From the NCBI GenBank assembly GCA_030428205.1, contig JAUIBK010000021.1, positions 2,523 through 66,522 of the forward strand: a stretch of 64,000 bases of DNA, read 5' to 3'. Position numbers and translations under genes: made by a program. Shown piece after piece: positions 18,326 to 21,627 of the stretch (its first letter is position 1; every line of letters starts with the position of its first letter). This DNA comes from a bacterium (GTDB lineage Bacteria; Bdellovibrionota_C; UBA2361; RFPC01). The notes under the pieces were generated by a model. That model was given only the letters and a program-made list of their open reading frames with translations, was not told where the DNA came from and did not search any database.

Positions 18326-19780
18326 ATGCCGCTTATTAACTTTTCCGGTCTCGCTTCGGGTATTGATTCTGAAGCACTTATCGAAGCTACGAGCGAAGCC
18401 TCGCGAGCCGTGCGTGTTGTGCCGCTCGAAGAAGAGGTCACCGAACACGAAGAAGAAACAAGTGCTCTTGAAGAGCTCAAATCGATGCTCGATAACCTTA
18501 AAGATCTCGGTGAAGAGTTTACCTCACTCAACGGTGGTGTTGTTGCAAAAACAGTAACAAGTTCAGATGAGACCGTGGTATCTGCTGTTGCAAGCAACGC
18601 GGCTGATATCGCTAGCTATGAAATTGCCTCTGTAACATCTCTTGCTTCAAATGCGACGTTTTCCTTTAGTGAAGCAATATCAGATCCAGATGCAGCCATT
18701 CTTGGAACGGGAAGAAACGGCGCAATTGAAATCACCATTGGGAGTGCTTCTGGTGGAAATCAAGAAACGATTACAATAGATGTAACAGAAGATGATACCA
18801 CCTTTAGTGAGCTTATTGCTGAGATTAACAACTCTACCTCACGTGCAACCGCTAGCCTTGTTAATGTTGGAACCGAATCGAGCCCTAGCTATAAAATGGT
18901 TATCACCTCAAATGAGATTGGTTCTGCAGATGCAGAGATATCTATCGATACGGATGTTGCTCATAGTGTGACAGCAGATCAACACCTTGATGACGATGCG
19001 CTTGATGACGCGACTGCTACTCTCGATCAAGCGACTGATGCTGTATTCGAAGTCACTGGTATTGGCACTATCACAAAGAGCAGCAACACCATTACCGATC
19101 TCTTTACTGGAGTCACACTGACGCTCAACGCTGAAAGTGGTACAGCAACAAACCTCCAGATTAAAAACGACGCATCTGCTACAGAAGCGGCGGTAAAGGA
19201 GTGGGTAGATGCTTATAATGAAATGATAGCGTTTATTGAGGAAAACGATCAGATTACCCGAGAAGAAGATGGCAGCGAAGTAACAAATATCTTTGGTCCC
19301 CTCGCCTCTACGAGACTCGATAACGGTGTCATTACCGCCATACGTGGGGACATCTCAGCTTCTGCTTACGATCCTGCCGGTGATGAAGAACTTCAATTTC
19401 GTATCTTTGCAGACCTCGGAATTACGACCGCACGAGATGGGACACTTGAGTTTGACTCAGATAAATTTCAAGAAGGCGTCAACAACGAACCAGAATCAGT
19501 CTCGGAAATTTTTAAAGCTTTTGGTGATGCACTTGCCACTACGGGTGGAACCATCGACCAGTACACCCGTTTTAATGGATTGATAGATACCGCCGTTGAT
19601 GCCAATGATGCACGAATAGAAGACTTAAACGACCGAATCGCTCGAGCCGAGGAATTTATTCTCGCAGAAGAGCAGCGAATTCGAGCGCGCTTTGCTCGTC
19701 TGGAAAGTACGATTTCAGAGATGCAATCTCAGCAGCAGGCTCTCACCTCAGCACTAGCCGGCCTCCCTGGAGTCGGATAG
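18326..19780 (+). CDS. fliD: Flagellar filament cap protein FliD, paralogue 1
   Basis: N-terminus MPLINFSGLASGIDSEALIEA and C-terminal coiled coil (DQYTRFNGLIDTAVDANDARIEDLNDRIARAEE...) are typical of FliD. There is a good RBS (GAGGGAG). Confidence 0.8.
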   Translation: MPLINFSGLASGIDSEALIEATSEASRAVRVVPLEEEVTEHEEETSALEELKSMLDNLKDLGEEFTSLNGGVVAKTVTSSDETVVSAVASNAADIASYEIASVTSLASNATFSFSEAISDPDAAILGTGRNGAIEITIGSASGGNQETITIDVTEDDTTFSELIAEINNSTSRATASLVNVGTESSPSYKMVITSNEIGSADAEISIDTDVAHSVTADQHLDDDALDDATATLDQATDAVFEVTGIGTITKSSNTITDLFTGVTLTLNAESGTATNLQIKNDASATEAAVKEWVDAYNEMIAFIEENDQITREEDGSEVTNIFGPLASTRLDNGVITAIRGDISASAYDPAGDEELQFRIFADLGITTARDGTLEFDSDKFQEGVNNEPESVSEIFKAFGDALATTGGTIDQYTRFNGLIDTAVDANDARIEDLNDRIARAEEFILAEEQRIRARFARLESTISEMQSQQQALTSALAGLPGVG

Positions 19781-20217
19781 TAAGAAGGGGGCAGCCTTTG
19801 CCCGCTGTTCGCTCCAACCGCCTATGGCGGTTTACGCGACCCTCTGCTTGCCGCTTTTCCTTTAGAAAAGCTACGCAGAGGGCTTCGTCAGGAAGATTTT
19901 TTCGTGCTCGATGTACCATACGTACGTCTCCGCGCGAAAATAACGCTGCGCTAGCTCGCGTCATATAAGGAAATTCGCTCTGTTAGAGCGATCTCGACAC
20001 CGAACAAACTCTGCCCCCTTACAGTGCCTCATCAAATTCTGTAAGAATGCCATCACTACAATTCGAAGAGAAAAGGGGGCAGCCTTTGCCCGTAACATAC
20101 TATAACTATTGAGAATTTTAAGATTATTCTCAAGCCATTCTCTAACCTGCCGATACTTCTATCTGAATGAGCAAAAGGAAGTAGCGCTCAACAGAGAGTA
20201 CATGAGGTACAAGCAGT

Positions 20218-21627
20218 ATGGCACTTATTCAGTTTCCCGGCCTCGCCTCGGGGATAGACACAGGCGCCTTAATCGATGCACTTATCGATCAGCAACGCGC
20301 TACCCGCATTGTCCCGTACGAAAATCAGATTACAACTCTTCAAGAAACAAACTCAGCCTTTGAGGAACTCTCTACCTATCTCAGCACATTACAAACATCA
20401 ATTGAAGGATTTCGAGCTATTAACGGGGGAGCCCTCTCAAGAAGTGCAAGCTCTTCAGATGAAACAACACTTAGTGCTACAGCGAGTAATGCAGCAAATA
20501 GCGGGGTCTACGATGTGACTGTTACCCAACTCGCCTCAAGTGCAACCTTTTCGTTCGACGATCGTTTCACTGATAGTACAGATGCCATTAATAGCTCAAT
20601 CAATGACGGTGCTGCAGAAGCAGATCGCACAGTGAGCTATACAATAGGAAGCGGAGATTCTGAAGAGTCTGTAGATATCGTACTCTCAAGCTCAACGACA
20701 GCAAGTGATTTTGTAAACGAGTTCAACGCTCAGAGCTCTCAAGCAACAGCCTCAATTGTCAACGTTGGCACGGACGCAAGCCCGAGTTATGCGATTATGA
20801 TTAACTCGAACTACGAAGGCACCGAGCAAGGTTCCATTACCCTTGATAGTGTCGGAACAGAGGTCCAAACAGCTGGCTCTGGTGCGTTTACGGCAAACCA
20901 GCTCGATCAAGCCACAAACCTACAGTTTCATATCACTGGGATAGCCGGAACAATTGAACGCTCATCGAATACGGTAACAGATGTTATTGCTGGGCTCTCA
21001 TTTACAGCAAACGACACTGGTTCCGCAACTCTCTCGGTAAGCACAGATAGCACAGCCACCGAAGCAAACGTTCAAGCTTTTGTTGAAGCTTATAATGAGC
21101 TCTATGCTTTCATCTCAGAAAACGATGCAATAGTTCAGGATGAAAGCGGCGGTGAAGTAACAAATATCACTGGACCACTTGGATCGACTTCACTCGACGA
21201 AGGAATTATTTCATCGCTTCGATCTGCCTTTTCAAACGCTGGAATTTCCGGCGAAACCATAAATGTACTTTCTGACCTTGGCATCACAACTCAACGAGAC
21301 GGAACACTCACATTTGATGCTGACACTTTTCGAGATGCGCTGAACGAGGACTCTGTGAGTGTTGGTACTATCTTAGAGAACCTCGGCGAAGCACTTGGTG
21401 GGGTTGATGGAACGATTGCGCAGTACACCCGCTTTAATGGACTCATCGATCAAGCTGTACAATCAAACGATGACAGAGTTAACTCACTCAACGACCGTAT
21501 TGCAGATTTAGAAACAAACCTGGCCTCTCAAGAGCAGAGCCTCATTGCACGCTTTGCTTCACTTGAAGCGCAAATAAGCCAATTGCAGAATCAACAAAAC
21601 TCTTTGGCCTCCCTCCTTCCCAGCTAA
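20218..21627 (+). CDS. fliD: Flagellar filament cap protein FliD, paralogue 2
   Basis: N-terminus MALIQFPGLASGIDTGALIDALID and C-terminus AQYTRFNGLIDQAVQSNDDRVNSLNDRIADLE. The termini are conserved with paralogue 1 and the central domain is divergent. Confidence 0.8.
   Translation: MALIQFPGLASGIDTGALIDALIDQQRATRIVPYENQITTLQETNSAFEELSTYLSTLQTSIEGFRAINGGALSRSASSSDETTLSATASNAANSGVYDVTVTQLASSATFSFDDRFTDSTDAINSSINDGAAEADRTVSYTIGSGDSEESVDIVLSSSTTASDFVNEFNAQSSQATASIVNVGTDASPSYAIMINSNYEGTEQGSITLDSVGTEVQTAGSGAFTANQLDQATNLQFHITGIAGTIERSSNTVTDVIAGLSFTANDTGSATLSVSTDSTATEANVQAFVEAYNELYAFISENDAIVQDESGGEVTNITGPLGSTSLDEGIISSLRSAFSNAGISGETINVLSDLGITTQRDGTLTFDADTFRDALNEDSVSVGTILENLGEALGGVDGTIAQYTRFNGLIDQAVQSNDDRVNSLNDRIADLETNLASQEQSLIARFASLEAQISQLQNQQNSLASLLPS

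Follow-up and report, generated by a model that had tools for sequence, protein, structure and literature searches.

The cap at the tip of the bacterial flagellar filament is normally the product of one gene, fliD, and the cap remains at the tip through the life of the filament. Paralogous genes for another filament component, the flaB and flaA flagellins of Campylobacter and Helicobacter, are split between sigma-54 and sigma-28 promoters. Bdellovibrio bacteriovorus HD100 carries one fliD (bd0611), located in a predicted operon with a downstream fliS (PMC9140294). In a 64,000-nucleotide stretch of contig JAUIBK010000021.1 (assembly GCA_030428205.1, positions 2,523 to 66,522 of the forward strand; hereafter the window) from a bacterium of the GTDB lineage Bdellovibrionota_C, two fliD genes instead lie head to tail, fliD1 at 18326–19780 and fliD2 at 20218–21627, and the spacer between them holds an insert that we call element E, with a structured, multi-hairpin unit of ~240 nt (19781–20024). 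We conclude, with a probability of roughly 0.7, that this locus combines an old fliD pair with split promoter types and an unrelated palindromic element that arrived later and relocates. The duplication itself is old and ordinary and affects a well-known gene. What appears to be new, as judged from the sequence, is the conserved sigma-54/sigma-28 split of the two cap genes together with a covariation-supported structured element whose class is unmatched in Rfam. We found no description of such a fliD pair in the literature searched.

Age and promoter motifs of the fliD pair

Both plus-strand open reading frames (ORFs), of 484 and 469 amino acids, are intact and encode cap proteins, as the initial annotation had proposed. 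The FliD_N (PF02465) and FliD_C (PF07195) domains scored 52.7 and 145.4 bits in fliD1 and 73.8 and 132.3 bits in fliD2, above the Pfam cut-offs of ~25 bits, and residues 7–476 of FliD1 and 11–462 of FliD2 are collinear with residues 7–460 of the solved Salmonella FliD (467 aa, E-value ~1e-20). This combination of N- and C-terminal domains with near full-length alignment is that of the FliD (HAP2) family, for which caps from Salmonella, E. coli, Pseudomonas and Campylobacter have been solved. Relative to that family, and to the single fliD of B. bacteriovorus, the locus differs in holding a tandem, clade-conserved pair with two predicted promoter types. The pair is not adjoined by fliS.

The two proteins are 47% identical over their full length. 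The initial annotation had described conserved ends around a strongly divergent centre, a contrast that the pairwise alignment shows to be overstated: identity was 49% over residues 1–70, 46% over the head (71–285) and 53% over residues 286–484, and the lowest values (18–25%) were confined to two short stretches at approximately 121–156 and 197–229. Divergence is roughly uniform along the protein, and the head is not singled out. No frameshift is present in either gene. We compared both with their orthologues in the closest-relative lineage, which was read from two contigs of different assemblies, L001 and L022 (GCA_020434525.1; L numbers denote related loci). FliD1 and FliD2 are each 84% identical to the L001 protein, and the coding sequences are 75–76% identical at the nucleotide level; pN was 0.09–0.10 and pS 0.68–0.78 across the two genes (0.087 and 0.78 for fliD1), with synonymous sites saturated, and dN/dS for fliD2 was ~0.06. 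Because pN lies far below pS and frameshifts are absent, neither copy is a pseudogene and purifying selection is strong on both. The suggestion of functional variation between divergent paralogues therefore stands in part, in that the genes are genuine, intact and differ in promoter type across relatives, but it does not stand as a concentration of divergence in the head. We regard fliD1 and fliD2 as genuine, divergent cap paralogues that are probably functionally differentiated.

To place the pair among its relatives we searched 5.8 billion proteins with FliD1, which returned one close relative (84% identity) and hundreds of homologues at 41–54%, the latter labelled Bdellovibrionales, Oligoflexia and similar metagenome-assembled genomes (MAGs). 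The best 120 homologues include five FliD pairs encoded on the same contig. The pair belongs to a conserved block with the order flagellin, beta-CASP nuclease (minus strand), fliD1, fliD2, DUF3108 gene (minus strand), small ORF and acyltransferase, and the whole fliD block recurs in L003, L010, L011, L012 and L014, while in L025 it is kept up to fliD2. Two variants of the block were encountered. In L002 (3900–10366) the segment from fliD2 through DUF3108 and the small ORF to the acyltransferase is inverted relative to fliD1, leaving the two fliD genes divergent and the breakpoint within the spacer, and in L008, L009 and L017 fliD1 with its sigma-54-type motif is followed by the small ORF and acyltransferase without fliD2 and DUF3108. 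In every pair mapped, gene 1 scored best against FliD1 of the window and gene 2 against FliD2; gene 2 of L003, for example, is 64% identical to FliD2 and 44% to FliD1, yet FliD2 is only 47% identical to the FliD1 encoded beside it. Trees likewise separated the fliD1 and fliD2 orthologue groups. Because the pair is present where the FliD proteins are only 41–54% identical to those of the window, the duplication predates these lineages, and the fliD pair is shown to be an old tandem duplication, fixed in a Bdellovibrionales/Oligoflexia-like clade.

The upstream regions of the two genes carry different predicted promoters. A sigma-54-type promoter, TGGCAC-N5-TTGCA, lies at 18248–18263 on the plus strand, 63–78 nt upstream of the fliD1 start, and conforms to TGGCAC-N5-TTGCW (GG at -24, GC at -12); the looser pattern TGGC-N7-TTGCW has this site as its single match within the window. 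Of 12 fliD1 loci, 11 have a sigma-54-type motif 51–78 nt ahead of the orthologue, compared with a background of 0.008 per 220 nt. For fliD2, the predicted promoter is of sigma-28 type, TCAAG-N15-GCCGATAC (20130–20156, plus strand), followed by a conserved 5' untranslated region (UTR), and it conforms to TAAA(G)-N14-16-GCCGATAA-like boxes. Of the 8 fliD2 loci, 7 have a match to T[AC]AAG-N13-16-CCGA[TC] upstream of the gene (background 0.006 per 220 nt). The sigma-54-type motif is not seen at fliD2, nor the sigma-28-type motif at fliD1, and L002, with its inverted fliD2 block, retains both. The fliD2 promoter and leader (20093–20217) are 83% identical to L001, above the 75–76% of the coding sequences, and the adjoining flagellin gene in relatives has a sigma-28-like GCCGTTA box. 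At the level of predicted motifs, a partition between fliD1 and fliD2 is shown across these relatives.

If the motifs are used as their sequences suggest, fliD1 and fliD2 would be separate transcription units under RpoN-type and FliA-type promoters, respectively, and one cap would be made with the middle-class genes of the hook and junction stage, the other with the late genes of the flagellin stage. The arrangement resembles flaB and flaA in that two paralogues of one filament component are divided between a -24/-12 type and a TAAA-N15-GCCGATAA type of promoter; it differs in that the split concerns the cap and not the flagellin, and in resting on sequence motifs only. Separately from the promoter, we note that the fliD2 5'UTR (20160–20217) is unusually conserved and has an AGG-containing ribosome-binding site and a small hairpin whose loop includes AAGGAAG. 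Similar hairpin-plus-GGA arrangements occur in the L011, L014 and L003 leaders, and the predicted fliD2 leader structure resembles CsrA-regulated flagellin leaders.

Element E and its repeated 5' end

The spacer first drew attention through an exact 20-mer, AAGGGGGCAGCCTTTGCCCG, which occurs exactly twice in the window and was not reproduced in any of 100 shuffles (0/100). The repeat noted in the initial annotation is real, with copy 1 at 19785–19804 rather than 19787–19806 and copy 2 at 20073–20092, both on the plus strand. Copy 2 does not end the spacer, as had been stated; the fliD2 promoter and 5'UTR still follow it, and 125 nt separate it from the fliD2 ATG. A third copy, inverted and imperfect, lies at 19997–20020 and had been missed; its match to the first half of the 20-mer is at 20005–20020. 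No copy lies upstream of fliD1 or downstream of fliD2 in the window, and the two exact repeats enclose 268 nt of non-coding DNA and no fliD copy. In L001 the fliD1–fliD2 spacer is 132 nt long, contains neither 20-mer and aligns directly to 20093–20217; the window therefore carries an extra ~308 bp (19785–20092), which is element E. Both flanks of the insert are the expected syntenic neighbours, and most relatives are without it. The spacer accepts other DNA as well, since L010 (3445–4653) has a gene for a 402-aa IS4/IS5-like transposase there on the opposite strand. Tolerance of insertions at this position would follow from the two genes being independent transcription units.

The initial annotation had read the repeat as the mark of a duplication or recombination module, and had itself associated a pair carried routinely by relatives without the repeat with an old, fixed duplication. 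The latter is the pattern found: the repeat is absent from the pairs of relatives, and in the closest relative the corresponding terminal redundancy is located after fliD2. Because the duplication predates lineages that are 41–54% identical in FliD, a perfect 20-mer cannot be its footprint. The 20-mer is most likely unrelated to the fliD duplication and represents the repeated 5' end of an inserted element.

The predicted fold of E is closed by a helix between 19786–19800 and 20005–20019, of which copy 1 of the 20-mer forms the 5' arm. Within it, hairpins at 19816–19832, 19840–19882 (inner 19853–19871) and 19900–19939 (inner 19910–19928) are kept in the relative, and further hairpins at 19940–19992 occur in this genome only. 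A hairpin TTACAG...CTGTAA with a linker follows (20020–20072, pairing 20020–20024 with 20039–20043), the first ~30 nt of which are homologous to the relative, and copy 2 of the 20-mer then forms a partial second copy of the 5' end of E, a terminal redundancy. For 19785–20022 the z-score of the minimum free energy of folding was -7.9 on the plus strand and -9.0 on the minus strand, and the copy of the relative gave -7.4; the spacers of other relatives were near 0. A consensus of the two copies contains 64 pairs with 5 compensatory double changes and 0 broken pairs, and 3 of the 5 compensatory pairs fall in the closing helix, which is built by the first half of the 20-mer. Columns that differ between the lineages make up 9.4% of paired positions and 51.8% of unpaired aligned positions. 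All stem substitutions (12/12) retain pairing, an outcome seen in 0 of 200,000 simulations, and the hairpin loops vary between the lineages where the stems do not. This pattern of covariation indicates that the helices of E are under selection. The small GGGCA/TGCCC hairpin within the 20-mer, which the initial annotation had pointed out, is present in this genome; in the closest relative a T.T mismatch breaks it, whereas compensatory changes preserve the long-range pairing of these bases.

The copy in the closest relative occupies a different site. In L001 the first 37 nt of E stand immediately after the fliD2 stop codon, and the contig ends with them. L022, whose DUF3108 protein is 83% identical to that of the window, starts inside E and continues through the 3' arm and linker into a second copy of E positions 14–80 and then into the globin upstream region, which is homologous to the window from 21648 onward. 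The terminal direct repeat of the relative is thus at least 67 nt long, and it overlaps the 20-mer of the window by only ~11 nt (GCYTTTGYCCG). In the window there is no E after fliD2. The terminal repeats are perfect, 20/20 in the window and 67/67 in the relative as far as the two contigs show, and this identity argues that they are recent in each lineage. As read from these two lineages, the terminal repeat is a redundancy of the element that differs in extent by lineage and is not a conserved functional part. The unpaired sites of E have diverged between the lineages about as much as synonymous sites, so the split between the two copies is roughly as old as that between the genomes. Either both sites were occupied in the ancestor and one copy was lost in each lineage, or E moved within one of the lineages.

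We propose that E is a palindromic, lineage-specific element of intergenic DNA and that its position has changed since the split from the closest relative. It would have inserted directly after the fliD1 stop codon with a layout of unit, linker and partial second unit, its 5' end being repeated 268 nt downstream. Its spread would be non-autonomous, similar to that of miniature inverted-repeat transposable elements (MITEs) or REP sequences, and may proceed via a greater-than-unit-length intermediate, either tandem or circular. The likeliest effect at its present position would be that of a 3' structural barrier on the fliD mRNA, acting as a stabiliser or a terminator-like insulator. The terminal inverted arms of E are 24 nt long and 79% complementary, those of the relative forming 12 perfect bp, and the element has no coding capacity. 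With the Correia/NEMIS, ERIC, RUP and REP/BIME repeats and MITEs, E shares small size, lack of coding capacity, imperfect terminal inverted repeats, a very stable fold, a place just past stop codons, presence or absence at orthologous sites in close relatives and a palindrome-rich host genome. Unlike them, it is a branched, multi-hairpin domain with compensatory changes in internal helices, and it closes with a direct repeat of part of its 5' end, which measures 20 nt in the window and at least 67 nt in the closest relative.

Searches for E elsewhere did not enlarge the family. At the Rfam gathering threshold the whole window gave only a tRNA, and a permissive search (E-value up to 10) of 19600–20400 gave chance-level snoRNA and viral matches only. 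When the window and 21–22 related loci were scanned with a covariance model of the two copies, no additional copy came to light. The exact 20-mer had two unrelated matches, about the number expected by chance, in 185,579 species genomes (the source genome not among them), one in an Omnitrophica MAG and one within coding sequence of Shinella. JGI metagenomes gave no match to a 31-nt degenerate pattern of the conserved left end, viral contigs none to a two-hairpin pattern, and plasmids and phages none to E by blastn. Among predicted proteins a 73-aa minus-strand ORF of E matched itself only, and a 61-aa plus-frame peptide matched two unrelated repetitive proteins only. No canonical intrinsic terminator was detected on the plus strand: the 20-mers score on the minus strand only, and the closing helix is not followed by a plus-strand U tract.

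Several known classes of element were considered and set aside. The T.T in the small hairpin of the relative, with the long-range helix retained, speaks against an IS200/IS605-type end hairpin (PATE), and the common orientation of the linker in both lineages against an invertible, phase-variation segment. A CsrA-sponge RNA is disfavoured by GGA motifs that are not conserved. The template and variable repeat pair of a diversity-generating retroelement is disfavoured by the lack of a reverse transcriptase and by the position of the repeat outside coding sequence, and a retron likewise by the lack of a reverse transcriptase.

Weighing the alternatives

A number of observations weigh against an old, promoter-split pair joined by a mobile palindromic element. 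On the side of the genes, the two L012 copies (6001–8811) cluster together and not with their positional orthologues, despite which they keep the sigma-54/sigma-28 motif split; this clustering could reflect gene conversion or a long-branch artefact. With L012 left out, bootstrap support was 71% for the fliD1 group and only 21% for a single fliD2 group. The L014 fliD1 is without a strict sigma-54-type motif, the L003 fliD2 carries a variant in place of a strict sigma-28-type motif, and the predicted promoters are consensus matches throughout. On the side of the element, both strands contain strand-specific G.U pairs that leave the folded strand ambiguous, the minus-strand consensus being somewhat more stable (-88.8 vs -77.2 kcal/mol). 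E is seen once per genome fragment (1 copy in 64 kb), whereas the MITE/REP class is defined by multiple copies. A clear target-site duplication, a further feature by which E departs from the palindromic repeats named above, was not found; a candidate TAA flanks E on both sides in the window and recurs close to each side of the relative's copy, which with two cases and loose boundaries is not significant. The E of the relative is stitched from two assemblies, each of which breaks inside the repeat. Finally, compensatory changes inside the hairpins are no less compatible with a functional RNA than with a selfish element.

The last of these points bears on the alternative that survives best, a possible but less probable one, according to which E would be a structured RNA dedicated to fliD expression, whether as a 3'UTR element, a 3'UTR-derived small RNA (sRNA) or a convergent antisense sRNA. 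In both lineages E begins 0–5 nt from a fliD stop codon in the same orientation, compensatory changes conserve its stems, whereas substitutions in loops and linkers approach saturation, and a 53-nt segment can be lost with the conserved helices left untouched. E. coli reportedly produces 3'UTR-derived sRNAs, FliX and FlgO, from late flagellar genes, and E resembles these in being a structured, RNA-like sequence that directly follows a flagellar gene of the late or middle class. E differs from FliX and FlgO in being much larger, in having no sequence or Rfam relation to them and in that its status as an RNA is a prediction. A role dedicated to fliD expression is also difficult to reconcile with the fact that E follows a gene of sigma-54 type in one genome and of sigma-28 type in the other, and with its absence from every deeper relative in which the pair is kept. 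The lack of a canonical plus-strand terminator and of an Rfam family, and a terminal partial repeat that differs between the lineages in extent and content, count in the same direction.

A more elaborate reading, which we consider doubtful, assigns stage-specialised roles to both caps and a lasting association with them to E. Filaments would be started by the sigma-54-dependent FliD1, and the sigma-28-dependent FliD2 would succeed it, assemble together with it or re-cap filaments that have broken. E would then be an undescribed structured RNA of ~240 nt that stays on a fliD 3' end and moves between the paralogues via a circular or tandem intermediate.

It is improbable that fliD1 and fliD2 serve two flagellar systems, for example one polar and one lateral. 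Bacteria with dual flagellar systems do have a cap gene for each, which would account for a pair; here, however, the genes are adjacent within a small conserved block that has a single flagellin gene and lies far from the other flagellar genes of the window, and a sigma-54/sigma-28 split fits two tiers of one flagellar hierarchy.

We give very little credence to the 20-bp repeats as a footprint or substrate of the fliD duplication, or of ongoing exchange between the paralogues. An exact intergenic repeat of this length is far beyond chance and the spacer is a hotspot of rearrangement, as the insertion sequence in L010 and the inversion breakpoint in L002 show, but what the repeats bound is 268 nt of non-coding DNA, paralogues at 47% identity with saturated synonymous sites stand on either side, relatives have the pair without the repeat, and no 20-mer marks the outer boundary of either gene. 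It is equally hard to credit a metagenome assembly artefact. In its favour, a Logan contig assembled independently (L007) begins at 19904, within E, the contigs L001 and L022 are likewise broken within the element of the relative, and the left junction of E in the window rests on one assembly, an exact look-up of FliD1 in the contig index having returned nothing. Against it, L007 is 100% identical over 19904–23715, including 20-mer copy 2 and the junction with the fliD2 promoter, both flanks are the expected syntenic neighbours, a homologous element of the same architecture appears in two other independent assemblies, and a 20-nt repeat is below assembler k-mer length.

Neighbouring genes, other palindromes and implications

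The flagellin gene of the conserved block is listed as a 316-aa ORF at 15347–16297 (plus strand); its true start is probably the ATG at 15437, giving 286 aa as in all relatives. A beta-CASP/MBL ribonuclease-like gene at 16585–17964 (minus strand) is the conserved neighbour 5' of fliD1, and the DUF3108 gene at 22137–23000 (minus strand) is the conserved neighbour 3' of fliD2. Between fliD2 and DUF3108, a truncated-globin gene (21740–22147) occurs in only this genome and the closest relative, and an AT-rich palindrome, TATACGTA-N4-TACGTATA, is common to both 5' of the globin gene. Just upstream of the flagellin block, 12237–14621 encodes a type IV coupling protein of the VirD4/TraG type whose C-terminal tail is of low complexity; the gene is syntenic in L025 (1302–3740) and apparently also in L012.

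Besides E, long and perfect inverted repeats of at least three families occupy intergenic sites of the window. The first is a hairpin family at 16476–16563, 44410–44497 and 56730–56817 with perfect arms of 27–29 bp (CCAATTTCTTGAACTTTTTTCTCCGTGGC ...) and a variable loop of 30–34 nt. All three copies lie between convergent genes, the copy at 16476–16563 being placed between the flagellin and nuclease genes, and they look like REP-like bidirectional terminators. A second palindromic family, at 4914–4995, 41128–41202, 50226–50279 and 3540–3569, consists of CTTGCTCTTGCAC-type repeats with perfect or near-perfect arms of 32–37 bp; both of its long hairpins lie between divergent genes, and 50226–50279 is a related (CTTGCT)n tract. 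More long perfect inverted repeats are found at 3640–3719, 46772–46832 and 54597–54782, of which two have 29-bp arms and one is a nested intergenic palindrome of ~180 nt. In L025, long hairpins of yet another family follow both fliD genes. From their sequences, these genomes appear to populate the 3' ends of genes with lineage-specific palindromic elements.

One further repeat lies at a tRNA gene. A second copy of the last 17 nt of tRNA-Leu(CAA) (25990–26073) and of the adjoining 25 nt lies 109 nt downstream (26057–26098 and 26166–26207, 98% identical), with an apparent inverted fragment of another long-arm tRNA in between. The region could be the relic of an integration site.

Element E offers a small, clean case of what appears to be a folded non-coding element whose helices are kept by compensatory change while its location changes. 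Known from two lineages only, it may be useful to those who catalogue structured RNAs or MITE-like repeats of bacteria. For the flagellum, the pair raises a question of assembly. If both caps are real in use, the two would have to share one filament, and the biology of interest is how they do so: in sequence, as hetero-oligomers, by re-capping or with different flagellins.

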